Shown: piece by piece, positions 11,798-58,953 of the stretch
Layout: each line of letters opens with the position of its first letter
Position numbering within the stretch: position 1 is the first letter of the stretch
DNA from: a virus
Lineage: Duplodnaviria > Heunggongvirae > Uroviricota > Caudoviricetes
Virus record (IMG/VR): IMGVR_UViG_3300021400_000025
Span: 310,479 to 374,478 of that record
Length of the DNA: 64,000 nt
Strand: one strand, 5' to 3'
Notes under the pieces: generated by a model
Seen by the model: only the letters and a program-made list of their open reading frames with translations
What the model was told of the DNA's origin: nothing
Databases searched by the model: none
Program-made: the position numbers and the translations under genes

Positions 11798-12523
11798 TCA
11801 ATTGCTTTCCTCCTCAACAACCTCTTGGTTTTCTTCATCATCCATTTCTTCAAGCAGCTTCAACATGTCAATGGTTCCACTTTCAACCATTCCATTTGGA
11901 ATCTGTCCAGAGCCATTTGGAATCTCCTGTGCCTCTGCAGGAGTGGAGTTCTTCCTGTCCATCTTCTCAAGGTCGTATTTCTGCTTGAGGTCAAGAAGTT
12001 CCTTCCTATGCTCCTGCTTCAGCATCTCCATCTTCACGTTATCGAAGAACTTAATCCTCTGCTTGTAGAGGGATGTGTATTCGGCTATGAGCTGCCGCGT
12101 CTCGCCAATGAGGGAGGCCGCAGCGGAGACAGTCTCGGAATCAAGTACGTCGCAGCTTGATATTATGCCATAGACTGTTCCAATCATCTGCTTCGTGGTG
12201 TCCACCAAATCCTCAATGGACTTGAATGCGTTTTCCACATTCACCATGTTGTCGATTCTGGCAGACGCAGAGCCATTCTCGTCCGTGTTGGACGATTGAA
12301 CTTGAGTCTGCGCCTTGTCTATGATTGAAAAGTTTTCTTGAAACTTCTCGTCAATCTCATCAACCTTGGACTTGGTTTCCTCAATCAGCTTCGCCGTCTG
12401 GTCAATCACCGACTGGGCGTCGTCCATTGGCTTCGTCGCCTCGTCCATGTAGTCCTCGAACGTCTGACCTTCCTGGATTCCAAGAAGCTCGTTGAGCCTG
12501 TTCTTGTTGATTTGCTCCGCCAT
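11798..12523 (-). CDS. coiled-coil protein, possibly terminase small subunit-like
   Basis: helical; C-terminal GTIDMLKLL recalls T4-like small terminases; assignment tentative. Confidence 0.4.
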   Translation of the reverse strand: MAEQINKNRLNELLGIQEGQTFEDYMDEATKPMDDAQSVIDQTAKLIEETKSKVDEIDEKFQENFSIIDKAQTQVQSSNTDENGSASARIDNMVNVENAFKSIEDLVDTTKQMIGTVYGIISSCDVLDSETVSAAASLIGETRQLIAEYTSLYKQRIKFFDNVKMEMLKQEHRKELLDLKQKYDLEKMDRKNSTPAEAQEIPNGSGQIPNGMVESGTIDMLKLLEEMDDEENQEVVEEESN

Positions 12524-13164
12524 CAATCAATTTCCTTGTCGCTGTCCTCTTTGATTTCCTGGATGATGCTGTCCTTCTGGCGTTTCAAGAACTTGGCGTC
12601 ATCCTCGGTTATCTGCTCAGACCCAATCATCATCTTCAGGAAGTTCATGTAGGACTTGTCAAGGTTGATGGATGGCATTTCCTCCTTGGCGCGTTCAAGG
12701 CTGTCGCGCATCAACTTCCGCTTGAAGTTCAACAAGTCATAGTATTCCTTCAAGTAGGTCATCGCACAAGACCAACATATCTGGGTGAAGTACGCGAATG
12801 GATTGTTGAAGTTGAAGTTGTATTTGAATATGCCTGTCTTGAATATCCTCTCGCATGAGCGCGAGATGATTTCCTCCTTCACATGCTTGGGATACCTGAC
12901 ATAGTCTGGATGTCCCATGTAGTGCGTTGCAATGTCCAGAATCATCTTGCCCAACTTCTCGGACGGCACCCGCTTCTTCTCGTCCTTGCTCTGGTCGCGC
13001 CACTTCTTCAACTCTTCAAGCAGCTCGGCGTTGCTGACATATGACTTTCTCTTGGGCCGAGGATTATGTCTCTCCTGTTCGGCCAACTGCTATTGTCTCT
13101 TTCTGGACTTCTCCAGATTCTTCTTCTGGAATTCCTCCAGACTCTCGCTCTTTCTTCTTGGCAT
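12523..13164 (-). CDS. gp55: T4 gp55-like late-transcription sigma factor (213 aa), in-frame TAG at codon 25
   Basis: YVSNAEL, LGKMIL.IA, NPFAYFTQI motifs; ATG 13164 is in frame across TAG 13090-13092. Confidence 0.85.
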
Positions 13165-29772: not shown

Positions 29773-30870
29773 TCACATATCAAGGGGAGCCAAATCGTAT
29801 TGAATATCCTCCCAAACAGAATGGATTTTCTTTTTTGCAGATGTCAACTGTTTGAAATAAAACTCAAATAGTGAATTCATGTCATCAGAACTAATCAATT
29901 CTTCTTTCCACTCGTCAATAAGATTTTGCAACTGTTCATCTATGGCTTCAATCTTGTCCCCAAAATACGCCAGGTCCTTTTCCTAATCATTCATCAAATC
30001 AGATTCGCTGAACTTTCTGCCGAACTTCTTGGTGGATTCCTAGAGATTTTTACCTGATTTTTTGGCTGACTTGCGTTCAACCAATGCTGATGCAGACACT
30101 TCCACTTTCAGTTTAGGGTTTCTAATGTTTACAATAGTGTAACAATATCCATCACAGTCATCATAGTTTTCATCACGTTCAACATTTACGATTTTCCATC
30201 CCTTCTCCGGAAGTCTCTCGTCATCGTCATATTCCCACATCACTTGCCATGCGTCAATATCTACAATTTCACCCACTTTCCATTCAGCCAATGGTTCTTC
30301 ATCGTCATCGTAAGATGGATTATATTTCCCCCCACCCATAATTGCTTCGCTGAACTTTCTGCCGAACTTCTTGGTGGATTCCTTGACCGAACCTTTAGCT
30401 GGCCTTATCCAATCTTCGTACACCCATATACCATTGATGGAATCGTCATCATAATCATCGTCCATGTCTAAATTTGTTATGTAGTATCTATGACCTGGAC
30501 GAATCTTACCAGATGCTTCTCTTCCCTCAACTGACTTAGCTTGCTCAATTATCCATCCATCTTCTGGAATGTCATCCAGAGAATATGCGCCTTTCGTGAA
30601 TTTCTCCGGTACGTCATTGTAGTAATTGTAGAACTCCTCGTAGAATTCCTTGGTGAGACTGACCTTCTCGCCAATGTCGAACTTTGGACGCCATTTCTTT
30701 TCAATGGCATCAAAATCGTCCTTCATCCAGGACTCCCTGAACATCAGCACCTTGCCTTTGTTCGTCTTGAAAAGTCTGCCGGATTCAGAGACATATTCCA
30801 GTTCACCGTATTTGTTCTTGAAGTACCTGGACTTGTTGAACTGCTCTTTAGTTATGTTTAGTTTTTTCAT
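29773..30870 (-). CDS. modular putative internal-head polyprotein (365 aa), 2 in-frame TAG
   Basis: 44-aa leader shared with 46922; modules separated twice by E|STKKFGRKFSE; TAG at 30040 and 29983; GTAAATA at 30894-30900. Confidence 0.75.
30004..30383. repeat. perfect 38-bp direct repeat (30004-30041 and 30346-30383) encoding the ESTKKFGRKFSE linker
   Basis: TTCGCTGAACTTTCTGCCGAACTTCTTGGTGGATTCCT occurs twice. Confidence 0.95.
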
Positions 30871-35476: not shown

Positions 35477-38400
35477 TCAAGGCAATTTCTCATAGACATT
35501 GTTGATTTGTTCAATATCTTTGGATATGCCAAAGAGCATTTTGGAGATTCGCCATGCGCAGAACTCCTCAGGCTCTGGCAATACGCCAATCACCTTGTAT
35601 TTGTACCACGCAATGAGATCCAGATTTGGCTCCTGTTCCTCGAAGTTCAACCCAAGATTTCCAGAAGGTGGATATGCAGATGTTGTGCCAGCTCTGCAGC
35701 AATATTCCCATTGGGCCTCTGTTGGAAGGTCGAAGTTGATGCCACCCTCCTTCCCAGAACACCATTCCTTCTTGCGTTTGGACTTTGTAAGTCCTAGGCA
35801 GTTGTCACGCGCTTCCATCAAATATGGCATCAATGGGCTTTCCCCGAACTAGTCATATTCCCCATCAGCAATTTGGGCAACAGCCTGTTCTATTGTTTTA
35901 CCCTATCCAACCAAAGTATCAATTTTCTGTTCATACCACTTAACTTGACCTTTGAATGTTTCTGTCTCCCATTCTGAATCCGGTGGAGGTTCAGAGTTTC
36001 CATATATTCTCCTCTGGGTCTGGAACACCACATTGCGGTTGAGGATGTCCATGAAGGATTCTGTTCCAGATCGAGTGTTCATCTGGAACTCATCGCCTTT
36101 GTTGGAATCTATGATGTAGTCGTTTCCAGATGGTACACCACGATTCACATAAGTCTGACCGGTTCCTCTGACATCTTTGTATGTGGCGTAGTAGTATGGG
36201 CGGGTGTCTTCAAGTGGATTGTATATACCATCTGCAATCAATTCCCCAATGAAGATGTCGTCATCGTCAACAGTATATCCCACTTGTTCTGAGGTTCTAG
36301 TCTTGCTTCGATATTCCTCCTTCAATTGCGCCCATTCCTCCTTCTCCCACACAGACAGGTACTTCCAATAGGACTTCTGCATCTCAGGCAATTTGTCGGC
36401 AAGATAAGTTCTTGCAGAAGATTGGGCATTCTATCCATGCACATAGCACCACTGGGCAATCGTCAACGCGAACGGGTCAATGAAGAAATGCTTGTTCTTG
36501 AAATACTTCTTCACCATCTTTGGCGTTCGCACATATCCAGTTTCATCTGGATTTTTGCCATTTTTATCCTGGAGTAAAATGACTTCACCATTCTTATCCC
36601 TTGCTTCAACCTCAATGTTGTTGTACAAATCCTTGTCTTTATCATACCCATCTGGATCTGTGGAATCATCGTCCAAGTTCTTGTTGACATACTGTTTTTG
36701 ATATGAACCACCATTGCCGAGAACCACCTTGGCGTGGTCGTTCTTGGCTTGAATGAGGACAGAATCATCGTCGGCATATCTGATTTTGGACTCCTTGCGA
36801 ATCTAGTCATAGTCGCTGGCGTGGCTCCCCATGCTGAATTCAACGAACTTGTCCCCGGAGATGGCATCCACTCTGCTGAGAACCATCTTGCTCGTCTTGT
36901 ATTCGTTCTGGTTGACAGATATGTTGGATGCGAACTTCATTGGGAATTTGCCAGTGATGTCGTCAGAAGATGCCGTTGGGTTCAAGTCCACGATGCAATG
37001 GGTGAATTGGAACTGCTTCCCAGCCTGGAACTGGCCATTCTTGAATGAATTACTGAATATCACATTTGAACCTTCAAAATCCATTATGGGCAGAACCTTC
37101 ATCGCCAATGTGTTCTCCTCGTCCTCGTAGTCAGTGACAAGTCTCCCCTTGGAGTCAGTGAGATTGGAAAGTATCTGGGAATGCCAACGATACGCCATCA
37201 TCAATGGCATTGCTTTCTTCAGATTGACATAGAAATCATATATCTTCCCATAGTTGTTCTGCCAATACTGATCATTTCCAGACTTCCTGCTAACGGATGA
37301 GTCGAGGGCTTTGGCTATGATTGCGTCTCGCCAATAGTCTGGATATTTTTTGTTTTTGGTTGGATACAGAAGCTCAGCAAGCACACTTTCATCATCAATT
37401 TTCTTGCCGCTGGCCATCGCTACTCTGGATGAAGTCAAGGTTTCTTTTGTCGTGTTGATTGGCTTGTTCCTCGCGTCCAACGTCACAATCTTCAAAACAC
37501 CCCCTGATTCATCATATCCATAACCATTATAATCCACAGTGACATAATCCACTGGTTGATATATGTCTTTTGAATCGCCATTCAAGTTGAAGGACAGCGA
37601 ACTGTATATGTAGTCCAAGAGACCAGAAAATGTTGTGTCTGTTCCTTTTGGGGCTTGATTATAGTCCCATTTGAATGCACCCTTCCAAGTCCAATCTGCG
37701 TAGAACACAACGTAGTCCACTGTGTCAGCATCAAGAAGTTTGCGCTGTGTTGTCCAATCTGAAATTGTATAGATGTGGACATTTGCAATCTACAACTATC
37801 CCAAGACATTTTCATTTAATAATTCCGCCAATTTGTCATCTTGATCAGTTCCAGTATAATCATACCCACGCCCCAATTGGGTGAACAAATATTGGCAGAC
37901 ATATCTGGAGTTGCCGAAGATGTCAGAAACAGACAATGGTTTGTTTGTAGAGGTTTTTGATTTGTTGAACCCTTCTTGTTTTTTTGTTCTCCATTTCCAT
38001 GGAACACACAACACAAACACAATATCCTTCTTATTGGTATCATTGATCAATTTCTATATTGTATCCCATTTGATGTTCTTCCTTCTTCCGAAGACTATTG
38101 TGTTGGTGTCATATGGATTGGCCATCGTGTTTCCAAACACTGCTCTAAACGTGGTGTAATGTGACGATTTGACTTTATTGTTGGCTTGGCTTTGCTTTTT
38201 CCACCACTTTATGCAGGAATTCGTCACATCCGTCCAAGAAGTGACATTGTTGCTGGGATCTTGCAAATCTGGAGGGAGCATTCTGTTCTTCAAGTCATCA
38301 GTGAACAAGTCATCGTTTGGCAAGAACATGCTCTCTGGATCAGACTTGAAGTTTTTCAGTGGCGCAGGCGCATTCGAGTCAGACACCATGATATATGTGT

Positions 38401-41400
38401 TGGTTGGTGGTATCTATTGCGCAGTGGCCAAGTATTGGCGCAGAGCATGGAAGCCGAGCGTGTTCGCGCCATTGTAGTGCATTTTCTTGGACTTTCCATC
38501 TGATTCATAGACATATCCTGGAAATGCGCCTTTGCCAAGACCATTCCATTGACTCAACCCAAACACCTGTCGGACAAACTGGCTTGTGGACAGTCCATAC
38601 CATCCATCCATGCTCTGGGTTGCTGCTATCTTGGATGACAACTTTGAATCATTTGGCAAAGAACGTGGTTTCAAAGTGGTGACTGTGTGATCCCAAGTTC
38701 TTTTGCCATTGCCTCCATCCTCAAACAGAATCCTTCTGATTTCTGCCGCAGAATCCAGCATGCCCGTTGTTCCACTATCATTCACATCTATGTTGACCAG
38801 AAAATCATTCAACGCCGAGCGATCAGCATCCCGCAGGACATCCAGACAATATGGGTCAAGCACATCAGATTTGGTCTCGCCAGACTGCACCAAGCACCCC
38901 TTCTTGTCTTTGGTGATGTCTGGAATGTACTTTTTCCAGGATTCTTTTGATCCTGAATATTTATCATATGTTCGGGACATTTCATTGTCGAACTCGTTGG
39001 AATACACGAACACCAACCTGGGGACATTCTTTCTGAACACATAGCCAAAGGGGTTTCCAGCATCTCCCGTCTTGGGTGCGCACCACCCACCGTTCAGCAG
39101 ACGATATATCGTATGGGTTATGTCTTCGCATCCGGCCCACCAATTGGACAATGTTCCCTTTCCATCGCCATGCTTCCCAAACGGCCACTCAAATGTGTTC
39201 TTGCCCCCTGGGGTTGGGTCATATGTGTAGAATTGTTGTGAGGTGTAGAATGGATTGTCGTCCACCTCCCCATCGCCATCATTTGTTTTAATGTTGTATT
39301 TCTTCCAGAACTCGTTTTCTTCTTCCCCTTTTGCTATCCCACCAAAGTGAAGGATGGCTGTATCATCATCTCCAGGGGTCAGATATTCCTTCCACGCTGG
39401 AACACCACAGAAGATGTTCATGCTGAAATCTTTGCCAGAAAACGAAGGAGATACTAGCCATTGTTTAACATATGTTCCAGTTAAATCTATGTCAATTCCT
39501 CCTCCACCACCGCCTGGACCAGGCACTGGATTTGGAGGAGTCTATCCCCCAACTCCACTGACGTCACCTCTGGCAGTCATCATCAACTTCGCTCTGTTGG
39601 ATGATGGTGGTGTATAGTTCATCCATTCATCGTTCTGGAATTCTCTGAACTTGAACAGAAGTCCTCCTTTTGTCTTCAAACCGTCCCTCTCTTCGAACAC
39701 CGCTTTCCAATTCAAGTTGTCTGGACTAACACTAAGCCAATCATATGCCCCCTGTTTGACTGGGCCTTGAACCCAACCTGTGTGGGCAGAATTGGGGACA
39801 AATGAACTATATGGACATGAACTGTAAACACCCATATTGTCACAATTATAATACTTGTATGGATCACTATATGTGGCTGAACCCCATATTGGTAGTGGAA
39901 CACCAAAGACCTTCACCACTCCCAGACGGGGTCTTTGTCCCCATACTCTGACACTTTCGCTTTCCTCAAAGCTCCAAGCATGTTGTGTAACCTTCTTCAC
40001 TTTCTTGGCGCACATCAAGCGCAATCTTGGTCCGAGGAACAACGCTGAACCCACATGGCATATGTCTTGTTGTTCCAGATCATTATTGTTTGATGGCGAG
40101 CCGGCGAAGAACTTGACAATCTTCTTCGCAGAATCAACCATGTCAGTCACCTGGTGATCCTGTGAACCAGAGGCATCGAACAAGAAGAACAAATCCACCG
40201 GCTGTCCACGCGACCATCCACCCTCGTTCTCGGATGTGAACACCATTGATGGTCTGAATCCAACATTCCCCCCATTGCCATCAACATGATGCTTCGAGCA
40301 GAACTGATCCCACTTCAGCCCCTCTCTGCTTGGCGATATCGTCTTGCGGCAGAATTCGTCATATGCTCCACCCTTGATGACCTTCTTTGGCGATTCTTCA
40401 CCACTCTATGTTCCCACAATTGGATTCACCTTGCCATTCAACTTGGAAATAGGATTGTCAGATTCATCCCAATCGTCTCTCACCCATTCCCAGACATTTC
40501 CAAGCATGTCGTACATCTCAATCTCCTGCGAGGGAGACTGCAACTTTCCCACTCTATGGATCATCAAATCGTTGAACGTCCACTCGTATCTCCAATACAA
40601 CTGTGGTATCACTTGGAAGGTTATGCCCTTGAGTTGCTCCACGGTGACGTCATGCACATCATCTGTCATCGTCTCCATGCTTGTGTACAACGGAATTATC
40701 TGTCTGTTCATCACCACTTGTTGGATGTGCCTAATCCACTTCTTGGTTGGGTCGTCCTTCTGCCTTTCAGACTGTGGATACTCGACATCCAGGTTCAAGG
40801 GGGAAATCATGTTCACATCCACATCCCCCAGATTCTTGGCATATGTCGCGTGGTCGCCAATCGTGTAGCTGGTTGGGAGATCCCCATTCTGATGTCCCTT
40901 GTATATGTGATACTCTGAAGATTCTTCTGAAGATGGTCTTATGCCAGTTTCTTCTGAATCCACTCCATCAAGGGTGGACACCACGAAATTATGCCTATGC
41001 TGGCGTATCTTCTCGAAACTCCAAGTGTCCTCGTTCTCATCTGAATCTGGTTTTTTCCTCACATCCCCAGTGAACATCACCAACGATGACTCATGCTCCC
41101 TTGCGTTCCTCTCCAAGATGGACGAGATTTGGACAAATGAGTTCGTCCACTGCACAACACAAGGATTTCCTTCATATGTGTTGGACTTGTCTATGCTCCC
41201 AAATGTGAAGTCATCTTTTACTGGATGTGCTGCCTATGTCTGCTTGTATGTGCGGTAGATGCCCTTGACAATCTTGTGGGTTCTGGCTTCAAGTTCACTC
41301 CACGAAGATTGATCGTTCCCGAGGGGGCGGTGCTTGTTCTTGAACCACTTGATGAAGACATAGTGCCTCACCACATTCCACAGATTCCATGTCATTGGTC

Positions 41401-44400
41401 TGTCCTTGATGGATTCCAGGATGTCTTCATTCAATTCATCTGGGACGAATCCATTGAATGCTCCATCGCCATGCGCATTCTCCCCCAGCCAATACTTGTC
41501 CTCGGTTGGGTCTTCATGCTGGTTGGTTCCGAATGGCGAGTCCTGATGCACCTTCCACTTCTCGTTGGAGCCTGCGCAATTTGGGTCGAACGCCCCCTTG
41601 TAGACGTTTCCTGAATTGTCCCCCTGCAGGACTGTGCCACCAAGATTGTTGCGCGAGAAATCAGCGCCCAATGTGTGCTGGACAGCATGCCATCTCTGCT
41701 CGGAGACCACCTTGTCCACAGTCTTCCTTATGGGATTTCCTGTGGTGGGATCGATCGTGACCTGCTCATCGTTCCTCAACTGTGGTCCAGAATAGCACCA
41801 ACCACCTTTCTCGTAGTTCAACTTGGCGTTGCTTTCAAGCCCATAGCAATCCACTGTCGGACCATTGTTGTCGGCGCCCCTGTTGCGCCACCAGAAGACG
41901 AATGGCATTATGTCCTCAATCTCAACAACCTCTTCCTGCCCCTCCAATGGCTCAACCATCGTTATGTAGAACCACACGGAATCCTCATCGAAGTCGTCTA
42001 TGGCATGGGCTTGTCCAAGGTTGTGATTGTACTTGAAAGCACCATCGTCCTTCAGAAGATACGAGCCTGTCTTGTCGTAATCGTCAACCCAATCGTGTTC
42101 CGGGAATCTGAATGTGTCTGGATCAAGGTTGGGGCATTCAGAACCATATACAGCGTTGAAATCGTTGTCGATTGCAGTCAGTTCCTTCAACTGCGAGAAC
42201 GAGAGCATGCTTCTGGGCTTCATGGCGAGGACTTCAAGGGCGTTCTTCCCATGATGATGCCTTGCCAGAAATTCGCATGTTTTGACAACATCGCCAAACT
42301 CTGAATCCAGATTTCTCCCCTGATTGCTGGTCTCGAATATGACGCCGTTGATGTGGTCGGAATTGGATGGGCGTTCCTTTGGCCCATATGTGTCCAACAT
42401 GAACGAAAACAACTCGTTGTTCCGCCTCTTGTTGAAGAATGGCTGGATGAAGTATGTCCAGTCCCTTCTGCCGTAGAGATAGCACCATGTGTCCTTGGCA
42501 TTGTCTTCGAGACGGCCATCAATCTTGTCGCCAATCCACTTCTTGTAGATGTTGGCAAGATCGCTGTCCAATTGGAGGAAGTTGTTCCCCCCAATCCTGT
42601 TGTGGTGGTCGTAGGAGGACGGAACATACAACGCCTGTTCGTTGTACTGCATGTCCACCATCGTCTTGGATGGGATTGTACACCACCCAAACACGCCATA
42701 GTCGTTGTTCACATCTGCCTCGTACTTGGTCTCCGCTCCTTGGCACTCGTCGAATATGTCTCTGACGTTTGGCATCACCAATGGGCGATACTTCTTCACC
42801 ACTGATGTGAATGTCTGAACCTGCTTGTTGTTGCGCTGTATCTCCGGGCCCCTTGTGGGCACAAAGTCGTTCATGTCGGTGGGGGACTGGATTGCCGAAT
42901 TTCCATGCAGATGCAATGGCTCCACGGCATAGTATTCCTGCCACACATCCACAAGCACTGGCAAGGGGTTTCCATTTCTGTCCTGCACTTGCACAAGACC
43001 CCTCTTGTAGTCGTAGCAGAGCCAGTCCTCGGAATAGTGACAGCCATCGTGCATCAAATCTCTGTTCACTGGGGATATTGGAGTCTTGACCGACCCATTG
43101 GATGTGCAAATCAACTTTCCATCCACCACCTGGTTCGCGGCGTGGAGATTGGAGAACTTCAACTCCACAGTTGGCTCGAACGAAATCCAATGGCTTCCAC
43201 AGATGATTGGAGAGGTGGCTTCTTCTTCCCCTTCACACACTATATCGTCAGTGTCTGGATTGCACACCAGGGAATTGGGCACAGTCCAACCATACCACCA
43301 GTTGGTCTCATCCTCAATCCATTCCTTGAAGAAGAACTCTGTCTCGGCTATGTGGATGTTGATTTTGAACAATGCGTTCAGAAGGTTCTTGACGTCCTCT
43401 ATTTGGATCAGAGACCCGGGCTGGAAATCCACATTGGCGTTCCACACCCCCTCAATCATCTTCAGATATGGGCAACCAGGTTCAGTCTTCCAATTGTAGT
43501 CCCGAGGATGCATGCCACCAAATGTGCATACATTCCTTTCCGCGGCATAGTATTCGCATTCAAGATCATCTGGGTCGCTTCGTCCATCCATCATTGGGCA
43601 TATCACCAATGGCGTCTGACTGACCACGATTTCCTCGTCTGGGAAGGTCTGCATCTTGTCATATACTGCTTCGAACACGCAATCGGAAAGCACTGTATAT
43701 GAAGACGAAATGTTCCCCGACTTCAATTTCCAATATCTGAACACGCATCCATTAGGAACATCTGCTTCTGGGACCACATGTCCCTTGAGGGGAGAGTTTT
43801 CCTGCACTAGATATGACTGTGTCTTTTCAGGTTCATCATCATCGGTTCCCCATTTGAATGTCACATTGAAATACTGGGAAGTGTCTTTGCCCAATCGGGC
43901 GTTCACCACGAAGTTCCATGTGGAGACATTGGTCGGATGGCACATCACACTTCCATCTTGACCATCGCACACAATTGGAGAGGTATCTTTGCACACGATG
44001 TCGCCTGATGTTGCTCCACCACACACAATGTAGTCAGGTGGTGGATTGAGTGGGTTGAGGCACACGATGTCGTCATTGTCGCACACAACAAACGATTGCG
44101 AGTTGTCCAACTCCCCATCCAATATCCTGCCTTCTGGCTGATCCCACCCCAAGAACACCCAGTCGTTCTTCATGCCTGGAGGACATGTTGGGTAGACCAA
44201 TTTCCCATCAGTGGTGGAGACCAGCACTTCACAATATACCTTGCCATTCACCTCGAAATCCACCCTGCTCCAAGTGGCGTCCTCCCATTGGGCGGAGAAC
44301 ACAACCACAGGAGAAGAGGATCCCACATTGCCTTGTATCCGAACCCTGTTGCCTGGACTGAATCTATTGTCCAAATCGAATTGGGAAGTCATGCATCTCC

Positions 44401-46816
44401 AATTGGCGAATCTGCGCAAATCCACCTTGTCCTGTGAATCCTCCACGGATTTCCATTCATCATCATCATGGTATGTGAATCTGGATATCTTCTGCGAATC
44501 ATCCAATGTGAAACCACATTCAGGAAGGGAGAACATCTGGTTGGATGCCACCACAATGTCGGGCATCGTCCCCTGGACAACAGATGTCTTCTCCCCCGGA
44601 CTGAACTTGACTATGAAGGACTTGGGCTTCCATCTGGCATACAACGCAATCCCACGCATTCCGTCGAAGTTGGCCAGATCAAGAAAACCATCCAATCCCA
44701 GAATGTCATCCCCATTGGGGGTGGTTGAGAATCCCACCAGTTCATAGTCCACCTGATTTTCGCCATCTGTGTATCTGGGGGAGGACGAAATCATGCCACC
44801 AAGACTTGACATGGCAAGGGGGAACATGGATGATTCTGCGTGAAGATATACATACTTGGGACGTCCCTCGGCGTCAAACTCCACATCATCATGTTCAATG
44901 TTGACAAGTCCATCAAAATCCACATCAGATTCGATCATCTCCATCCCATTGCCCAGATTGAACCTGACAACAAGGAACACATGTCCATCTGGGAGGTAGG
45001 TCTGGACGCTGGGAGCGGCCCTCATCTTCATGCGCAAATCCCATGGCAGTCCTGAGACCCCCTCCACATCATCACGATTCTCCTTGCACAATGGACATAG
45101 GTTCCAAGCACGATCCCTGTCTTTTATGTAGCTGGCAATCTTCTTCTCAAGAACCTTCTGGAAATTGCGCAGCGTGGAAATCTCGTCGGAAGAAAGCCCA
45201 ATCTCACCATTTAGCTGATCGTCAGTGTATGCAGCCAATTTCCTCAGATATCTGACATACGGAACCTCATCACCCTCATAGAAGTACACCTGCCTGTTTT
45301 TGTCAGAGTTGAAGATGGATTCTGAATCCAGATATTTGAAGCCCATGTCAACATTGAAATGCCGATTGAACGTCTCCTTGGTCGTGGACTTGAACTTCAA
45401 GTATCTGTACAACCTGGAGAACACGCGCTCAATCACGATTGCGCACTGACCCTGGGAATACTAGATGATGTGTTCAGGATTGAATTCCTCTATTGCATTG
45501 GTCGATGAATTGTAGATGTTGAAGATTTTTTCGTTCTTGATCACGCTGAATGCATCCTCAAGCGCGTCAAATCCAAGTTCAAGCATCCTCTGCTTCTTGC
45601 CAATTCCAAGATCAACGCCAGATGGCTTGACTGTGGCATCTGTGTCTATGAACTCCTTGTAGTCTTGTGGAGACATCACCTCATATGCCCTTCCAAGATG
45701 AAGATTGGTGTATTTGGTGAAATCAGACTTGTTTGCCTCCGAATATACCTTGCCATTCTGGTGGAACCAATCGAAGTCTCCATTCGAGTAATCGCACACA
45801 ACATCTTTGGCATCATGCTTATATACAATGTCATGAATCTTGCCCAGCACTCCCCTTGGAGTCACATAGTCAGAACGTTGGTCATGTATGGACTTCGCGT
45901 TCCTCTTCAGCTCATCCCAAAGATCATCGTCCCAGATATATGATGTCCCATTTTCGTCCTTCGTCACGGACATTGGATTCATGTCCAGATATTCATCGTT
46001 GAAGGGATACTGCTCGTCTATGGCACGATACAGAAATTGATACCAGATGTCAAGGGCAAGAATGCCCTCCCATTCAGTGTGTGGCTGCTTGAATCCATAC
46101 ACAACATAGCTCATGCGGATGTTGGACATCTTGGCGAACAACTCGGCGATGTGTTCGCAGAAGGTGTAGATGTACGCCTTTGCGTCAGTTTCCTCAGATA
46201 TCGTTCGTCTGAACGAGTCCTTGACATCCTCAATGTCCTTTTGGAGGTTCCTCAGTCTGTATAGATTGGTGGAGATGGGGTGTCTGTTTTCGTCCACCTG
46301 GTCATTCTATGCATTGTATTTCCCACAGTTGTAGTCGTTGAGGAACTGGTCAGAGTAGATTCCAGTCCTTGCCATGTCAGGATTTTCTTCAACTTCATAT
46401 CTGGTCTGAGAATAGTCTATGAACGGCGTGTAGGTGAATGAATCAAGGAAGAACCTTCTGTTGTCCCTGTATTTCTGAAGCAAATCATTGTTCTCATACT
46501 GGGACTGGAACCAGTTATTGCCATTGCCCATCATCTGCTCCATGAAATCCTGGAGCATGATTCTGTCAATATGGTCGAATGGCGTGTTCAGCCTGTCCAT
46601 GATGTTGGCCCAATATAGAGGGTCGTTGCTGCCAGCCTCTAGAGTCATGTTGGACGCAAATTCCCTTGGACCCTTTCCCTGAAGCATGCCAAATCTATTC
46701 GTGCCAGATTCTTGCCCATGTGGAGGAGTTCCGTTGTCAACCTTCTCAGGCCTCATCACATCCTCTATGAACCCTTCCACTTGTCCCTCAATCAATGTTT
46801 TGATGGCATCGTACAT
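35477..46816 (-). CDS. giant (~3779 aa) fibre/adhesin-like protein with B-repeat-like, FGE-sulfatase-fold and vWA segments, 13 in-frame TAG
   Basis: twelve ORF-track pieces lie in one frame separated only by TAG; ends TGA 35477; motifs YDMLGNVWEW, LPTEAQWEY, FLFDASGS; GTAAATA upstream. Confidence 0.85.
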
Positions 46817-46860
46817 CGTAAATTCTCTCTATGTTTCTTTCTGTTCGTCTTCCACATGGC

Positions 46861-46893
46861 TATTTACCATTGTTATGCGAAAATAGGTAAATA
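46861..46893. promoter_or_regulatory. divergent pair of late-type promoters
   Basis: TATTTAC-19 nt-GTAAATA. Confidence 0.7.
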
Positions 46894-46921
46894 GAAAAGC
46901 ACAACCATAGAGAACAACAAA

Positions 46922-48202
46922 ATGAAGAAACTGAGCATAACGAAGGAGCGGTTCGAGAAGTCAAGGTACTTCAAGAGAAAATATGGGACTTTGAAGTTCG
47001 TGTCAGAAAGTGGAAAGACCTTCAAGACAGACAAGGGAGAGGTCATACGGTTCGTCTCCGAGGCGAGGGAATATGTGGACGACGACAGCATTGAAGAGGA
47101 CAGTGCAGAGGAGTTCATCATATTCGATGACCCTGACATATTCAACAAGATTGCCAATGTCCACAAGAAGGAGGAGAAGAAGGTTGAGAAGGAAATCGAA
47201 CAGCAAGACATCACCAAGCAGGATGTTGTGCAGACTGCATAGAATGGACCTTCCATTGGCGGACAAGTGGCTTCATCTGCAATATCTGCCACAGGAAGCA
47301 TAATCTCCAATCCCACAGTGGTCACGCTCGCGGCGAGCGCATATGGAGCATCCAAGGCGAAGGAAACCGTGGACACCCTCAAGCAGGCCCTACAAGACTA
47401 CAAAGACCTCCAGAAATACCAGCAAGTCCAGCAAGTGGCGCGGAATTCTGTAGACGCATATACCAATAGAGTGTCCCAGAAATTGGGGGTGGATGTCAAG
47501 TTGTTAAACAAAGGACAGGAGTGGGTCAACAACCTCAGTGATTCTGAATTCAAGAGGCTGGGTCTGGACAAGGTTCCAGACCGCAGCATGGAATACTACA
47601 AGATTGTGTCTCAGGGACTGCCAGAGGGGGAGAGGGCTGCATTCTTGAAAAACGCAGAGAAGGTGGCAACCACTGCCGCATCTGCTGGCGCAGGTGCCGC
47701 CGGAGCAGGAGCAGCATCTGGAACAACCATATTTGGAATGAGCCTCGCAACAATTGGATGGATCGCGGCAGGAGTTGCTGCTGCAGCCATCATAACGCCG
47801 TACATCTACGACAAAGTGAGAGCCTGCACCAAGACTTGGCTTGCCGACATCATAGCAGAAGTCAAGTTCAAGGCAGATGGAAAGGACTACAGATGCTTCT
47901 ACGACCTTGACGAGAACAAGTGGATTCTCACATACGCGAACGTGAAGTGGACAAGCTACATGGACAACAAGCTGGACAAGGAGACAACAGACGAGTTCTT
48001 CAACTCCCAGTTCTTCAAGAAGTTCCTTGACAAGTGCAAGCAGACGTTCGCGTTCCTGTTCTCAACAGGAAAGAACGAAGTCGTGTTCAAGACCCTCCCT
48101 GAAATCAAGGACGCGCCAAAGGAACTCAAGGACATCCTGGAGAAGATTTACGACAACAAGGGCGCAATCACGAAGAATCTGTTCACAGGCAGACACGATT
48201 GA
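46922..48202 (+). CDS. putative internal-head/ejected protein with shared 44-aa leader and Gly/Ala-rich hydrophobic helix (426 aa), 1 in-frame TAG
   Basis: TAG 47240 joins two ORFs; leader 31/44 identical to the 30870 gene by manual alignment. Confidence 0.75.
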
Positions 48203-48280: not shown

Positions 48281-50494
48281 TCATGCATCAACGCATGTGT
48301 GCTTGACCCTCTGTTCAGTCTCCTTCTGCTTGCCATAGTTGAACGCAGTCTTGTAGTCGCCGGTCAAGTAGCCTGTCACGCGGCGGAGACGCTGGATGTT
48401 CGTGGAGCCGCACTGTGGACATTTCTTCCCAATCTCGTCCGTGTACCCACAATCGTTGCAGATGTCGTTCGGGACGTTGATTGCGAAATAGGGGATATCG
48501 TGATCCATGGCATAGTTCACAAGTTCCTCAACAGCCTGGATGTTGTTCTTCGCCGTCCCATCAAGTTCAACATAGGTGATGCAACCTGCCGATGAATATC
48601 CCGTCAACTGACTTTCAAGGTCAATCTTCTCAAACGGCGTCATCTTCTCCCACACAGGAACATGCATGGAATTGGTGAAGTAGTCGTGGTCGGAGACATG
48701 TTCAATCTCGCCATACTTCGCCTTGAACTTCTTCATCGCAGTGTAACACAGGTTCTCAGCCGGAGTGAAATACACGCCAAAGTTCAGCTTGTGTTCCTTC
48801 TTGAACTCCGCGCACCTGTCCTTGAACAACTGCTCAATGTGTTTCGCCAACTCCATTCCCTTCTTCGTGGTGTGGTTGCATCCAATGAGGATATGAAGTG
48901 TCTCCGCCAATCCCAACTGACCAATAGCCAAAGTGCCATGCTTCAACGCGGACTTGATTCCCTCTTCGGGCTTGTAGCCATACATTGTCCCATTTTCGTA
49001 CATGAACTTCGCGGACGCTGCCGGCTGAGAGCTTATCCAATCGAACCTTTCAAGCAAGGAATCCTTCGCCTCATGTATCTTCTTGTCCAAGAGCTTCATG
49101 AACTCCTCCACGACGTCAGTTCCAGCCTTCTCAGCCTTCTTCTTGGCCTGCATCGCCAATGTCGGCATAATGATTGTCGTCGGACATATGTTTCCGCGGC
49201 CGTCCTTCAACTGAACCAACTTGGGGTCTTCCGCGTTGATATCGGCAAGGTTGGCGGTTCTGCATCCCATCGTGCTGAAATAGGTGCATGGGTTGTTGGG
49301 GTCATAGCCAGCTGCATTAGACCAATCCACGTTCGCATAGTTCGGATACAATCTCAATGCAGTTGACTTGCAAGCCAACTTGAACAAGTCGTAGTTGGGA
49401 TCGCCCTTTTTTCTGTTCACGCCCTTCATGCACTGGAAGATGCCACATGGGAATATGCTCGTCTTGTGGAATTTGCCAATTCCCTTGATAGAACCCTCAA
49501 TCAGGGCTTTCGTCACCATGCGTCCCTCTGGCAACGTGCATGTGCCATAGTTGATGGATGTGAACGGAAGCTGATTTCCACTTCTGCTCTGAAGGGTGTT
49601 GAGGTTGTGGTACATTCCCTCAACTGCCTGCTCAAGTTCCTGAACGGTCTTGTCCATTGCGTACTTGTATGCTTCAGTGTCCTTATTGTAGATGTTTGCA
49701 TCTATTGAAAGTTCACGCACCTGTTCCTTCGTATGTCCAGAAATCTCGTTCTCCTTCTCAATGTACTTCATTCCATCCAAATAGTGCTTCCAGAAGCTCA
49801 AACGCACGTACGGAACCATCGTCCAGTCTAGGTGCGTAGCAGCTACTCCACCAAACTGCTGAAGGGATTGAAGTTGGAATATCACAGCCACCAACTGAAA
49901 TGCCGTGCTGATTGAACCTGCTGGTCTTATATCACCCTGCCTTGTGTTGAAGCCCTCTTTCAGCAACTTGTCAAATGGTATCGACAAGCAATTATGGGAG
50001 CCAACCGCGTAGGCATCAAGGTCGTGGATGTATACCTCGTTGTTGTTGTGGTTGTGCCTTGTCTTCTTCGACACCAGATGCTCAAGGGCGTAGTTTTTCA
50101 TCACATAGGAAGCGGTCTCGCCCATTCTCCCACCAAATGAATACTCATCAACGTTGGCGTTCTGGTTCTGGACATTGGATGCGGTCAGCTTCTCAGTGAG
50201 GTATTTGGTGTTCCTGACCCTCTCCTTCTCGTAGCGGTATGTGATGTACTTCTTCGCCACCTCGTATCCCGCGGCCTCCATTATCTTCTTCTCAATGACA
50301 TCTTCCAGTATGTCTATGTCAATAGGCTCTTCCAATGTCTCGCAGAACGCAACAACTGAATCTGTTATGCGCTTCAACTGCTTTGAGGTCAGCTTCTCGT
50401 CTGCCTTTACGTTCTCGTTTGCCTTGATTATTGAATTCAGAATCTTCTTCGGCTCCAGGTCTTCAACCTTGCCATCTCGTTTAATCACTGTCAT
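48281..50494 (-). CDS. nrdD: anaerobic ribonucleoside-triphosphate reductase with ATP cone
   Basis: VIKRDG ATP cone, YIHDLD, TMGCRT, TPAENL, CxxC..CxxC, RVTGYL. Confidence 0.97.
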   Translation of the reverse strand: MTVIKRDGKVEDLEPKKILNSIIKANENVKADEKLTSKQLKRITDSVVAFCETLEEPIDIDILEDVIEKKIMEAAGYEVAKKYITYRYEKERVRNTKYLTEKLTASNVQNQNANVDEYSFGGRMGETASYVMKNYALEHLVSKKTRHNHNNNEVYIHDLDAYAVGSHNCLSIPFDKLLKEGFNTRQGDIRPAGSISTAFQLVAVIFQLQSLQQFGGVAATHLDWTMVPYVRLSFWKHYLDGMKYIEKENEISGHTKEQVRELSIDANIYNKDTEAYKYAMDKTVQELEQAVEGMYHNLNTLQSRSGNQLPFTSINYGTCTLPEGRMVTKALIEGSIKGIGKFHKTSIFPCGIFQCMKGVNRKKGDPNYDLFKLACKSTALRLYPNYANVDWSNAAGYDPNNPCTYFSTMGCRTANLADINAEDPKLVQLKDGRGNICPTTIIMPTLAMQAKKKAEKAGTDVVEEFMKLLDKKIHEAKDSLLERFDWISSQPAASAKFMYENGTMYGYKPEEGIKSALKHGTLAIGQLGLAETLHILIGCNHTTKKGMELAKHIEQLFKDRCAEFKKEHKLNFGVYFTPAENLCYTAMKKFKAKYGEIEHVSDHDYFTNSMHVPVWEKMTPFEKIDLESQLTGYSSAGCITYVELDGTAKNNIQAVEELVNYAMDHDIPYFAINVPNDICNDCGYTDEIGKKCPQCGSTNIQRLRRVTGYLTGDYKTAFNYGKQKETEQRVKHTCVDA

Positions 50495-50507
50495 TTCCGT
50501 TTACCCT

Positions 50508-51023
50508 TCAATTTCTAAAATTCACTTCAACTATCTTTCCAGACTTCAATGTCTTCTTGACGTCAATCACCCTCTGGTTGGATGAACCTCTGAATGGGCA
50601 TGAAAGATCCTTCTTCTCCTGGATGAACTCGCCATCGACAATGACATCAACACAGTCGAGAATGCCCTTCATGCTGTTGTCTGTTGAAATGTCCTCGAAC
50701 CTGTATCCTGTCCAAAGCCAAATGTCCTTGGTTGGAAACTGTTTCTTGACCTCACTGCATAGATTGATAATCTGAGTTCTATTGTCGGAGCATACACTAA
50801 GTGGCTCGCCACCCATCAGGCTCAAGCCATCACATGTTGGTTTTTCAAGTTCACCGAAAATCTTCTGTTTCGCTTCTTCGTCAAATGGCTTTCCAAACTC
50901 AGGTTCCTGAGCCTCAGGGTTGAAGCATCCTGGACATTTGCGCAAACAACCAGTGACCCACAATGTGCATCTAAACCCCAGTCCATTGGAAATGTCGGCC
51001 TTCAAAATCTTTGTGTAATTCAT
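50508..51023 (-). CDS. nrdG: anaerobic RNR activating enzyme
   Basis: GCLRKCPGCFN, GGEPL, FRGSSNQR. Confidence 0.95.
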   Translation of the reverse strand: MNYTKILKADISNGLGFRCTLWVTGCLRKCPGCFNPEAQEPEFGKPFDEEAKQKIFGELEKPTCDGLSLMGGEPLSVCSDNRTQIINLCSEVKKQFPTKDIWLWTGYRFEDISTDNSMKGILDCVDVIVDGEFIQEKKDLSCPFRGSSNQRVIDVKKTLKSGKIVEVNFRN

Positions 51024-51232
51024 GCTTTGTATCACCTTAAAATTTCAACTTGTCCAAGCTATATTTACGCCACACCACCCTTCAATTATACCCTTGTTCA
51101 ACAACAATAATTCGACAAAATTTTCCATCAACCCCAATGTTTTCATTCGATTTTTTGTATATATGGGGAAAGAAAAAGGACGCCCATCAGAGAGCATCCT
51201 TGGCAACAACAGAAAGTCATTGTTGTATTTCA

Positions 51233-52951
51233 TCAGTTCCTGCGGAACACATACCCATCTTCCTCGAAATAATCGTTGATGAGAAGGTCTCTTCCGAAGG
51301 AATCGTAGTCGAAGTAATTACGTACTGTGTCTGGAGCCAACTGGTCAACGCCACCAAGACTATCAACATAGTCATAGGCAACCTGCTGGTCCGATTCGTA
51401 CTCGCCCTGGTCATAGCCATCGTTGTCGTAGTAGTGATCTGGATCTTCAGGCTCTCCTTCGGAGTCCGTGTTGTCGGGATCTCCACGGTGGAAATCATAC
51501 ATCAAGTCGCGTCCAAAGGAATCGTAGTCGAAGTATGTGTCAAGGTTCTCCTGACCAACACTGTCCCAGCCCATGTCGTCAACAATATGGTAGGCGAAAT
51601 CCTCTGGGGAGTCAAACTGTCCTTCGTATGCGTCCTCAAAGTCCTCAATGCTGTCGTTGTCGGTGTAGCTGACATATGCTGCGTAGGCATCCTTCTGGGA
51701 ATCGTCCATCAAGTAGTATTCGTTGATCTTGTCAAACTCCTCCTCGGTTGGCAGACCACCTTCGTGATACCACTTCTCTGGGAAGTTCTCGTAGTCCTGA
51801 ACCATGAACTCCGGATCATCCTCGTCCTCATGCAGCTTGTAGCAGGCTTCAAGGAACTCCTCGTATGTGTTGTACTTGGACAGGTCAATCCACTTGCCAT
51901 CAATGCTGCCATTGTTGTACTTGGCGTATGTACCAACGTAGATTTTTGGGGTATCGCCAATGTAGTTGTCCCCATCGTCGGCTTCCTTCAACATTTTTAT
52001 CTTATTCACAACAACCATTGGAGTTGAATTGTCATAGTTTCTTCCCATTTTTACCTGCACAGATATGTTGTCATATCTTTGTTCAAGTAGTTCAGCAAAC
52101 TCTTTAGCATCTTTGATGCTATAATCATCGTCAAATAAAATAAAAGATGTATTATCATCACCTCTTACATTTTTAACACCAACAACATTTTCGTCGCCAA
52201 GGTCGCTTATCAACTTGAGAAAGTTACGTCCATTCGCCATGAACGGAAACTTTGCATTTTCCTTCACAATCTTTCTGGATTTCATCTTCTGCTTCCCAGT
52301 GGATTCGTTGTACACATCAATGCTTGTTCTATTGACAATCCTGTAAATGGTATCATCGTCCTCAATGCCCTCATATCCTCCAGGGAGGTCAACGATGTCG
52401 CGGTAGTTGAATTCCTCAATCGTCTGAATTTCAGGATATCTGTTGAAGAGGTCTTCCATCAGAAAGAAATAGTCGTCAGCCTCAGCTCCATCGCCAGACA
52501 TATCATTGATGTCTTCAAGTTCCTGCGCGAACTTCTGGACTTTCCTCTTGTCCTGTCCATAATACAATCCATGAATCGCCGTGTGCATGTTCCTGAAATT
52601 GACTGCCCACATTATCTGCTTTCTGGATTCGTTCACCATATCCTAATCCTCATCGCTGAAATCTTCGTCTTCTTCTTCATGATAGCCGACATCCTTGAAT
52701 CCCTTTGCGTCAATCGCTGCAAGAAACTCTGGAATCTGGTCCTTTGAAATGAAATCCTCATCGTACAGCTCGTACTCTCTGTCTCCATAGTCCACCCTTC
52801 CAATTGGCGCACCTCTGTAGTAGATTTCATATCCATGGTCATAGCCACCAAGACCCATTTCCCAATTGCCGCAACGTCCATGCTTGCCGTTGTCGTCAAT
52901 CTGATCCATGACCTTCCTCAATGGGGCGAAATTCAATTTCCTTGTCTTCAT
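51233..52951 (-). CDS. ardA: multi-module polyprotein ending in an ArdA anti-restriction domain (572 aa), 1 in-frame TAG
   Basis: KIYVGTYAKYNNGSIDGKW, EFMVQDYENFP, YFDYDSFGRDL; ORF 52643-52957 joins across TAG 52643; GTAAATA at 52985-52991. Confidence 0.85.
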
Positions 52952-53002
52952 TTGCAAATCTCTATGTTGATTGTTTTCAAAGACTATTTACAAAAAAGGC
53001 GA

Positions 53003-54311: not shown

Positions 54312-54641
54312 TCAATTTTCCTTCCATTTCAACTTGCTGAACGCCTCAATAACATCAGCGTCGATGTTCGTCCTTCCATCCTTGGAATCCTCAACCCAAA
54401 CAGTGATACCGCAATGGCTGTCGGTCACCCAAGAAGTGATGGAAACCTCCCGTATGGTTTTTGACAAGGAGGCGTTGAACAAATCACCAAGAAACTCCCC
54501 GACTCCATCTTTACTGTAGCACCTAAACTTTTGTTCAAAACTGTTCTTGTAGGTGCATACGATGATTGACTTGATTGGGAGATTGCCCTTGCTCTTGAGG
54601 ACAGCCCCCAATTCCCAAACTATTTCGCAACTGCTTCTCAT
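54312..54641 (-). CDS. hypothetical protein (paralog of the 55335-56039 C-terminal domain)
   Basis: manual alignment. Confidence 0.7.
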   Translation of the reverse strand: MRSSCEIVWELGAVLKSKGNLPIKSIIVCTYKNSFEQKFRCYSKDGVGEFLGDLFNASLSKTIREVSITSWVTDSHCGITVWVEDSKDGRTNIDADVIEAFSKLKWKEN

Positions 54642-54644
54642 TGA

Positions 54645-54884
54645 TCAGAACTCCGCGTTGCGCATGTTCCTGAACAATTCCTCGGGACGATTGATGTAGT
54701 GGATTGCGAACCAAGTGGCCGAGAACGCCATCCAAAGCAGATAGATTGGGAAGATGACGATGGTGGCGACAACCCCCAGAATCCAAGCAGGTATCATCAC
54801 CAGAAGGACATAGGGGAGCGACTTCCTGTTTGTCCTCTTGCGATATTCCTCAACCTGCCCACCAAACAATTGATAATCTGTCAT
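54645..54884 (-). CDS. small membrane protein
   Basis: long hydrophobic stretch; GAGGAG RBS. Confidence 0.7.
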   Translation of the reverse strand: MTDYQLFGGQVEEYRKRTNRKSLPYVLLVMIPAWILGVVATIVIFPIYLLWMAFSATWFAIHYINRPEELFRNMRNAEF

Positions 54885-54915
54885 GTCTATTCTCCTCGTT
54901 TCAATCAACACCAAT

Positions 54916-54945
54916 ATTATAGCATATCAACATGCCCAATGTCAA
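54916..54945 (-). promoter_or_regulatory. consensus sigma70-type (early) promoter
   Basis: CCCC-TTGACA-18 nt (TG extension)-TATAAT. Confidence 0.8.
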
Positions 54946-55313
54946 GGGGCTTTGCAAATCCAAATGCCATAGAAGAACCTCGTATGTCCTGCAACACCCG
55001 CGCTTCCTTCCTCAGTGAGACGAAACACCTCATATCCTTGACACCCACACAAGTCGAACAAGTAATGTAGGACTTGGTACTTGTCAGCAGTCTTGTGGGA
55101 CTTGAGCGTTGTCTTGTTGCCTTTCCTTGAGCAAAGGAACAAGTCGAAATATGGATACTTACCCTGATTCTTGTCGTCCGTGAGAATTTCACAAATTCGG
55201 GTCATGAACTCACCTGTGTTTATGTGGTTCTCGTATGAACACAAGAACAGTTGCGCAAGTTCCGAAATGTATTGTGGCTTCTCGTAGCAGTCCATCGTCA
55301 TGTCTCCAATCAT
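54942..55313 (-). CDS. hypothetical protein
   Basis: ORF fills a gap in the co-oriented cluster. Confidence 0.6.
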   Translation of the reverse strand: MIGDMTMDCYEKPQYISELAQLFLCSYENHINTGEFMTRICEILTDDKNQGKYPYFDLFLCSRKGNKTTLKSHKTADKYQVLHYLFDLCGCQGYEVFRLTEEGSAGVAGHTRFFYGIWICKAP

Positions 55314-55334
55314 TCATGCCCAACTGTGGAAAAA

Positions 55335-57812: not shown

Positions 57813-58037
57813 ATGAAGAAAAACACCCCCAAAATGAACGAATCTAAACAAGAATCACTCTTCGCCCAACAGGACAAGTGGAAGTTGTTCAAATGGATAT
57901 GGGATGAATTGGACACATGCCCATATGTGGCAGGCGTAGAGGACGCAGACGCATAGCATGGAACACTTGAAGTTGCCACCAAAAACGGCGACACATTTGT
58001 TCTGATTCTCAAAAAGGGGAGTTGGAGGGAAGTATGA
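57813..58037 (+). CDS. small protein with KMNE|S leader (74 aa), 1 in-frame TAG
   Basis: GTAAATA at 57779-57785; read-through of TAG 57954 gives an ATGA overlap with the next gene. Confidence 0.7.
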
Positions 58038-58417
58038 TAGAATGGATGATTAAACTTGGATTGAAGATGGTTCCGTATTCAACATTGGTGGAGGTCATAG
58101 CCACTGCGATTGCCTACATCATGGACTACGCCAGAAAGAACTCCACAAAGGACGGATGGGAAAAGGCGAAGAAGACCATACACGAAGTGCGCAATTGGAC
58201 AACATTGTTCGATGAAGTCTATGAGGACGATACCTTGACTCCTGAAGAGGAGAAGAAAATCCAGAACGCAATAGCCAACTGCACCGTGACAACCTCAATC
58301 TACAATCTCATCAAGGGCAAGAAAGCCCCGAAGAAGGAGACCTGGAGGAACAGTCGCAGGAAAACAACAACATCTTCATCAACGAAAAGAAAAACCAAAA
58401 AACAGAAAGAGGCATGA
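58034..58417 (+). CDS. membrane-associated protein, possibly holin-like
   Basis: N-terminal hydrophobic segment and very basic tail; function tentative. Confidence 0.5.
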   Translation: MIEWMIKLGLKMVPYSTLVEVIATAIAYIMDYARKNSTKDGWEKAKKTIHEVRNWTTLFDEVYEDDTLTPEEEKKIQNAIANCTVTTSIYNLIKGKKAPKKETWRNSRRKTTTSSSTKRKTKKQKEA

Positions 58418-58953
58418 AGGAAATGAAATTCAGAAGAATCGTGAAAGAATCCAACAAGGACATCCTGAAGGAAATAGAGAGGATGTACGGCGTCAAGACC
58501 GCAAGGGCACTGGAAAAATATTGCGCAAAGAAGGGCATAGATCCAGAGAGGGTCGTCAACGACACAAGCACCGACAGAAATGGGATGTGCGAATGGGACA
58601 AGTTCGATGTCTGGGCGCAGAAGCAGGGAGTTGACTTCGCCGCCAACTTTGGAGATGTGGACATGGACAGTCTGTTGGGAGTTGATGACAAGAAGAAGAC
58701 CAAGAAGCCCAAAGGTCGCGCCACGAAAATCTACGATAGACCTTCTGATGCAGACGTCTATGGAGAGTCTGGCGATCAGGACGAGAACGACGTCCTGGAC
58801 TTCATCACTGACGAACTCAACGAATGCGAATGGGTGAAATGGGTTGACTTTGACGACTACGATGCCACTTGCACGATTGGAACTTCCAGCGGAAAGGCGT
58901 ATGACATTTCCGTGAAGGAGAACACCACGGTGCAGATTGACGACGAGGACTGA
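58414..58953 (+). CDS. putative internal head protein with MKFRRIVKE|S leader, two modules
   Basis: leader motif and internal VYGE|S. Confidence 0.7.
   Translation: MKEMKFRRIVKESNKDILKEIERMYGVKTARALEKYCAKKGIDPERVVNDTSTDRNGMCEWDKFDVWAQKQGVDFAANFGDVDMDSLLGVDDKKKTKKPKGRATKIYDRPSDADVYGESGDQDENDVLDFITDELNECEWVKWVDFDDYDATCTIGTSSGKAYDISVKENTTVQIDDED

Follow-up and report, generated by a model that had tools for sequence, protein, structure and literature searches.

Results and Discussion

The locus and its genome

An open reading frame of 572 codons occupied positions 51233..52951 (minus strand) of the window, the 64,000-nucleotide stretch of phage DNA analyzed here; it ended in TGA and contained one in-frame TAG, translated as Gln. 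The TAG was codon 103 (52643..52645, minus strand), and the same site was found in the related loci L006 and L010. A late-type promoter box, TGTAAATA, was located 41 nt upstream of the ATG (52985..52992, minus strand), and a hairpin followed by a T run, resembling an intrinsic terminator by consensus match only, was located just past the stop (51176..51201, minus strand). The gene lay outside any head operon, among nrdD, nrdG, and small genes. The nrdG- and nrdD-like genes (window 48281-51035, minus strand) carried a GTAAATA-type box here and in relatives, and the position of nrdG relative to its neighbor varied between relatives.

The window was contained in a complete phage genome (G000) of 418,068 bases with terminal repeats. 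T4-like head genes were encoded, including a gp23-type capsid protein and a gp21-type prohead protease (PF03420; G000 224572-225309), as were a portal, a tail sheath, and a T4 gp55-like late sigma factor (window 12523..13164, minus strand; phmmer with T4 gp55, E 2.6e-8). The gp21-type protease and the gp23-type capsid protein were also encoded in two complete related genomes (434 and 414 kb; 400 kb of each was read in stretches). The sequencing runs containing phage DNA were animal gut metagenomes, and a single one of them contained over half of the sequence words; the sequence of the polyprotein (hereafter the chain) was confirmed in the likely source run, while the contig pieces of relatives were too short to cover module joints. 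A host search with a DnaJ-like gene returned just 27-36% full-length matches spread across phyla. A run of small genes (G000 198237-201862 and window ~18954-19520, minus strand) was also observed in which every product began with MK(I/L/V)R(S/A)D(Y/F)VSNSSSSSF.

Read-through of TAG

Under translation table 11 the locus was split into two ORFs of 102 and 468 codons, and with TAG read through it formed the single 572-codon ORF. Across the genome, the ORFs that ended in TAG under code 11 (n=142) continued for a median of 253 codons before a TAA or TGA was reached, compared with 13-14 codons in other ORFs (n=426), and the coding score beyond the stop was +1.6 compared with -13. In alignments with the two relatives, the residue opposite TAG was most often Gln (28 of 58 columns with one relative, 36 of 76 with the other), and no other residue was counted more than 9 times; columns with TAG on both sides were excluded from the count. 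The prohead protease match itself included a TAG, and genes behind the late-type box were richer in TAG (3.06 compared with 1.27 per 1000 codons). A tRNA with a CTA anticodon was encoded at G000 268611-268687, outside the cluster (231541-242512) that comprises 31 tRNAs and a tmRNA. The features of a TAG-recoded (code 15) phage were thus all found: Gln-aligned TAG in conserved genes, enrichment in late genes, and a suppressor tRNA. On this evidence, TAG is decoded as sense throughout the genome, mostly as Gln. Recoding of TAG in late genes has been described (10.1101/2021.08.26.457843), and the present phage fits that description.

Two other explanations of codon 103 were rejected. A sequencing error or a true gene end was ruled out by the same site in L006 and L010 and by the genome-wide read-through, and a frameshift or a pair of overlapping genes was ruled out because all modules share one frame. 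A second long ORF of ~3800 aa (window 35477-46870, minus strand), which has 14 in-frame TAG codons and the same late-type box, also fell into several ORFs under table 11; its sequence resembles adhesin-type domains.

Modular architecture of the chain

The protein consisted of three small modules and a C-terminal ArdA domain. Module 1 (aa 1-92; 52676..52951, minus strand), delimited by an AlphaFold model and homologues, was predicted to fold as a helix, a beta-meander, and a helix and carried a conserved GGYD. It was followed by an acidic linker 1 (aa 93-108; 52628..52675, minus strand), placed by breakpoints, model, and motif, which contains the TAG and ends in MVNE/S (a slash marks the putative cut). 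Module 2 (aa 109-216; 52304..52627, minus strand) was a predicted alpha/beta domain with stand-alone homologues of 99-122 aa and similar limits. Linker 2 (aa 217-231; 52259..52303, minus strand) was a basic peptide between two Glu sites, and its second half was the N-terminal leader of stand-alone genes. Module 3 (aa 232-323; 51983..52258, minus strand) ended in KMLKE/A, showed only a generic alpha/beta fold, and was present in 3 of 28 homologues. The ArdA domain (aa 324-572; 51236..51982, minus strand), placed by PF07275, charge, and profile, contained its C-terminal subdomain twice.

The AlphaFold model of residues 1-325 (pTM 0.43) contained three domains, with pLDDT below 50 only at 94-105, 218-232, and 321-325, and a second model, of residues 1-218, agreed with it. 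The quality for module 3 may have been lowered by one misaligned row of a distant homologue in its alignment (A4). Stand-alone homologues of modules 1 and 2 measured 85-122 aa and ended near the linker positions; module 1 also occurred within other phage chains, and module 2 was present in the same chain in 10 of 46 module-1 proteins from databases. Searches for a stand-alone module 3 of 51-275 aa and scans of viral contigs for module 2 found none. The GC content of module 3 was 34%, compared with 44-50% in the remainder of the gene, and this module looks like a recent insert between two Glu sites. Modules 1-3 had no Pfam or PHROGs match, and Foldseek against the PDB and viral models returned nothing at E 0.001. 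The best VIA-align Z was 6.0 for module 3 (rmsd 3.6, 64 aligned) and 4.2 for modules 1-2; these model-based scores fall in the range of common arrangements, and new folds are not implied.

Assignment of the C-terminal domain to the ArdA family was clear from its sequence: residues 337-486 matched PF07275 with 116.8 bits against a cut-off of 27, PHROG 2059 matched with E 2.4e-31, and the ArdA profile matched the Tn916 ArdA structure (PDB 2W82) over residues 2-148 with E 8.5e-5, while a single-sequence search against the solved structure gave no match. Residues 324-572 were strongly acidic, with 71 Asp/Glu compared with 14 Lys/Arg, and ArdA was kept intact among relatives at 65-88% identity. An earlier note on this DNA, made from the letters and translations, had described a 572-aa ORF with one in-frame TAG, three upstream modules of unknown kind, four Glu motifs between modules, domain boundaries at the linkers, and a C-terminal ArdA. 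Translation of 52951-51233 (minus strand) reproduced the ORF, the Glu residues lie at 108, 216, 231, and 323, the low-pLDDT gaps coincide with the linkers, and the C-terminal domain matched PF07275.

Among 52 viral ArdA loci, 4 were chains; in the other 48, ArdA was preceded by no more than 63 residues, in which there was no such Glu motif. In an ArdA tree of 46 rows, with 13 of the 52 viral loci excluded because they were near-copies or short, a weak branch (74/84) set the chain-borne rows on one side, a result compatible with one origin or two.

Late-type box and expression

The box was kept 38-47 nt upstream of the gene in all eight related loci. In the genome, TAAATA occurred within 100 nt of 72 of 458 called genes, with GG or TG before it in 65 of the 74 listed cases; the box itself was counted at 65 of the 458 genes. 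Among 63 box-gene proteins scanned, five had virion or lysis family matches (sheath, baseplate wedge, portal, endolysin, and, weakly, tape measure) and five had non-virion matches, the remainder being unknown or matchless. A TGTAAATA-type box also preceded the prohead protease gene. The box was absent from 11 of 12 genes that we took as replication or metabolism genes, with nrdG carrying a variant; it also preceded a methyltransferase, a transposase, and a homing endonuclease, and a variant form preceded nrdG and nrdD. The late box of T4 is TATAAATA, unlike the TGTAAATA box here. The gp55-like sigma factor is the likely reader of the TGTAAATA box. A sigma-70-like site (10/12 match) was also located 50 nt upstream of the chain gene and was absent from eight relatives. 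As the box was kept in 8/8 relatives whereas the sigma-70-like site was not, late expression of the chain gene is likely. The late expression proposed in the earlier note is thus read from the box, which also stands before some non-virion genes and so does not prove a virion location.

Putative cleavage motif in head proteins

T4 gp21 is reported to cut after L/I-x-E, to shred the scaffold, and to trim short capsid-targeting leaders off internal proteins (PMC9026906, PMC7411985, PMC9958956). The link to gp21 drawn in the earlier note gained weight here, as the genome encodes a matching gp21-type protease and the same motif is found in the putative scaffold and the capsid protein. The scaffold, a coiled-coil gene product assigned by its position before the capsid gene, contained 12 sites of hydrophobic-x-E followed by S, A, or T, compared with 3.0 in shuffles, and none of 2000 shuffles reached 12. 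The capsid protein carried LFTE/AAP at residue 54 in all three genomes, in the region of T4 gp23 FLTE/AE, where 521 residues become 456; the site appears equivalent to Glu65 of T4 gp23, with the automatic alignment superposing the two inexactly. The motif count of the capsid protein was not significant alone (4 compared with 2.4, p 0.21).

In the chain, the hydrophobic-x-Glu motifs were located at the predicted disordered joints, and the linker motif sequences matched those of the scaffold and capsid protein. The loose motif occurred seven times, four times in linkers and three times inside ArdA; the copies inside ArdA mean that the motif alone is not specific. A further gene at G000 54501-55328 (L111:14501-15325) encoded 275 aa; the middle of the product is acidic, and nine hydrophobic-x-ES sites (0.4 expected) lie in its Arg/Lys-rich tail, which makes it a candidate prohead core protein.

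Linkers and N-terminal leaders

Relatives differed in which modules they placed before ArdA. Among 28 homologues found with residues 105-335, module 2 was present in 27, ArdA in 27, module 1 in 6, and module 3 in 3, and about 16 module families besides ArdA, counted manually, were shuffled among relatives; in places the clustering of families did not separate modules 1 and 2, or module 3 and ArdA. Of 167 clusters of BLAST breakpoints, located without using the motif, 66 were no more than 8 aa away from it, compared with 16 expected, the rows being related and hence not independent. In the chain itself, breakpoints at about 105, 231, and 319 coincided with motifs, and further clusters at 65 and 306 lay away from them. 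All 34 related chains had a Glu site in the 22 aa preceding ArdA, compared with 95 of 6312 sequence windows inside ArdA (1.5%), by a pattern written after the sequences had been inspected. The Glu preceding the linker was invariant in 10 of 10 module-2 sequences, the linker Glu was found after many unrelated modules, and some linkers were reduced to forms like ESRKVNE that retained both Glu.

The same element was found at the start of separate genes. Ten genes began MK/R..hydrophobic-x-E, compared with 2.1 in shuffles, and one of them began MKFKKIVKE/A, which is the consensus second half of linker 2; the untranslated leader of that gene resembled the first half of the linker at the DNA level. 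Four modules that followed an N-terminal MK..xE leader in G000 were found in the interior of a chain, after xE, in a relative, and for one module the two positions were exchanged. The leader-type element, internal in this chain, was N-terminal in the relatives L007, L009, L013, and L014; in G002 the ArdA chain itself started MKFKKIVKE/A, and in G001 module 2 had a gene of its own, immediately followed by that of a 781-aa chain starting MKKMNE/S. Other chains of G000 were built alike and had modules in common with ArdA chains. Judged by these matches, linker and N-terminal leader are a single element, used within chains and at the start of stand-alone genes, and the simplest reading of the sequences is that tandem leader-bearing cargo genes fuse or split at the leader, which would then serve as a release site.

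The same leader or linkers were observed in the window at 28451-29488, 58414-58953, and 57813-58037 (all plus strand) and in G000 at 167867-169195, 407814-408812, 416076-417023, and 68338-69252, some with modules of the ArdA chain. A different conserved element of ~47 aa, which starts KKLNITKE and ends near FKE/S, was observed in many unrelated proteins, either N-terminally or internally, including 10 genes in G000 (for example, window 46856-48202, plus strand, and 29773-30870, minus strand) and 5 and 8 proteins in the stretches read of two relatives. This element is possibly a second, longer capsid address.

Distant phages with 34-36% GC provided a second setting for such chains. Chains of 1260-1278 aa ending in LKE/D-ArdA (L027:37-3870 and L031:82-3861) were encoded one gene before a gp21-type head protease, which gp23 followed in L031. 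The motif excess was mild in these chains (13 compared with 7, p 0.013) and strong in the protease-scaffold of L031 (15 compared with 3). By this gene order, an ArdA-ended chain is part of the head operon in another lineage.

Proposed mechanism and alternatives

The findings suggested that the chain is a late-made cargo that is loaded into the prohead, cut at its Glu linkers by the gp21-type protease, and injected, a reading that we consider probable. The earlier note had proposed packaging, cutting, and injection, and the circumstantial case for these steps is now stronger. Decoding of TAG as a sense codon, mostly as Gln, would yield the full-length chain, and reading of its head- and tail-gene box by the gp55-like sigma factor would place its synthesis late. 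The basic, Lys-rich stretch before Glu may act like the capsid-targeting sequence of T4. The chain starts MKTRKLNF and has no Glu site before 108; several relatives' chains have an N-terminal Glu leader that module 1 here does not, so targeting would depend on an internal signal or on the basic N-terminus. Inside the prohead, the protease would cut after hydrophobic-x-Glu in the exposed linkers, as it would in the capsid protein and the putative scaffold, and linker 2 would lose the basic peptide enclosed by its two Glu sites. Cutting would free ArdA and three small partners, which would be injected along with the DNA; ArdA would then mimic DNA and block type I restriction at entry, in keeping with the function of its family, and modules 1-3 would be additional entry-time factors.

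That modules 1-3 are entry-time factors, most plausibly of counter-defence, is the weakest step, and we hold it only tentatively. These modules have no family or fold match, which makes their anti-defence role an inference from company alone, namely that of the T4 internal proteins and of the head-borne type I protection of P1. A broader reading, that a genome-wide plug-in system operates in this phage clade, in which the element is at once an N-terminal capsid address, an internal protease release site, and a recombination joint, is more doubtful still. At least 16 small proteins shuffled before ArdA would then be injected as a changeable anti-immunity cocktail, and modules 1-3 would be new anti-defence proteins with unsolved folds.

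The chain could instead be packaged as a polyvalent protein that is left uncut or only trimmed at its ends, the linkers being fossil N-termini of gene fusions and recombination points only. The resemblance of linker DNA to the 5' untranslated region and leader of stand-alone genes agrees with this, and some multidomain phage proteins, such as the N4 virion RNA polymerase, are described as packaged whole (PMC5512222). Such a reading is unlikely, given that the pre-linker Glu did not vary in module-2 sequences and recurs after many unrelated modules, that even shortened linkers keep both Glu, and that a site exposed inside the prohead would encounter the protease. Slightly more improbable is a late protein that stays in the cytoplasm, where ArdA would shield newly replicated, still unmethylated phage genomes of that cell, with the chain always remaining outside the head. 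The non-virion genes behind the box, the nrdD, nrdG, and small-gene neighborhood, and the strong negative charge of ArdA are all compatible with it, but it leaves unexplained both the match of the linkers to the scaffold and capsid sites and the position of the L027 and L031 chains beside the head protease.

Each of the three linkers contains an in-frame ATG (codons 105, 223, and 320), and translation might start there to yield nested products ending in ArdA, with TAG acting as a true stop until recoding switches on. A ribosome-site-like GAGG precedes codon 105, relatives have AGGA before the linker ATG, and TAG stands just before Met105 in three genomes. Nevertheless, Met is missing from 10 of the 35 distinct double-Glu linkers, no ribosome-site match precedes 223 or 320 in this phage, and restarts would be unable to free modules 2 and 3 from ArdA; we regard this as a highly improbable sole explanation, and internal starts may coexist with cleavage. 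Least credible, to the point of being nearly dismissed, is a filler of the prohead core that would be degraded and lost, as are gp22, gp67, and gp68: the motif is shared with the scaffold, but the sites in the chain lie only between well-folded domains, and ArdA is intact at 65-88% identity.

If cleavage of a packaged chain is right, a tailed DNA phage loads entry-time counter-defence proteins by the polyprotein strategy familiar from other viruses. ArdA is an early protein of conjugative elements, and it would become a virion-borne protein. Each module between Glu sites would be a small and soluble candidate of defined extent, its ends being predicted, and the arrangement would point to a natural means by which one capsid-targeted chain delivers several proteins. 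Because ArdA anchors the function of the chain, the linker could be used as a search tag for new anti-defence genes.

Comparison with known systems

The internal proteins of T4 are among the closest known parallels to the proposed cargo. IPI, IPII, IPIII, and Alt are described as having a capsid-targeting sequence and as being processed by gp21, and Ip1-3 as injected restriction inhibitors (PMC9026906, PMC7411985, PMC9958956, PMC12373910), with each of the three internal proteins blocking a different restriction enzyme (PMC12373910). A T4-type protease, capsid protein, and late sigma factor are also encoded in this genome, and hydrophobic-x-Glu sites, a short basic leader, and small variable cargo are common to both, here as predicted from sequence. 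In T4, cargo proteins are separate genes with one N-terminal signal each, whereas here the putative signal is found inside the chain as well, where it connects several cargos; the T4 signal, MKTYQEFIAE, differs in sequence from the leader here. The cargo of T4 includes an inhibitor of GmrSD, and that of the chain is ArdA, predicted to act on type I systems. T4 internal proteins are basic, unlike the very acidic chain protein, which would lie in a DNA-filled head. A comparison of the chain with the T4 Ips found no sequence similarity, and the chain is not a member of the T4 internal-protein system proper because the defining N-terminal signal is absent here.

Phage P1 carries type I restriction protection in its virion through the Dar proteins, of which DarA is trimmed by the prohead protease (PMC12810830). 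These are unrelated proteins from separate genes, with N-terminal trimming rather than release of several modules. Tn916 ArdA (PDB 2W82, PF07275) has the family match and the high acidity in common with the present domain, which instead spans ~240 aa, repeats the C-terminal subdomain, and follows cargo modules and a late-type box. A literature search, with thin coverage of subscription journals, found no paper on cargo polyproteins cut by a prohead protease or on virion-borne ArdA.

Polyvalent proteins are the nearest published concept. They are described as shuffled multidomain chains of unrelated conflict domains whose delivery alongside DNA has been proposed; their domains include ArdA, which is tied to ArdC-N in Firmicutes elements, and processing has been proposed for an embedded zincin-like peptidase (Iyer et al. 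2017, PMC5512222). Like them, the chain has at least two unrelated domains and an architecture that varies among relatives. Pfam and PHROGs gave no match in it to a zincin-like MPTase or ArdC-N, neither of which is universal among polyvalent proteins, and its joints instead match the specificity predicted for the phage's own head protease.
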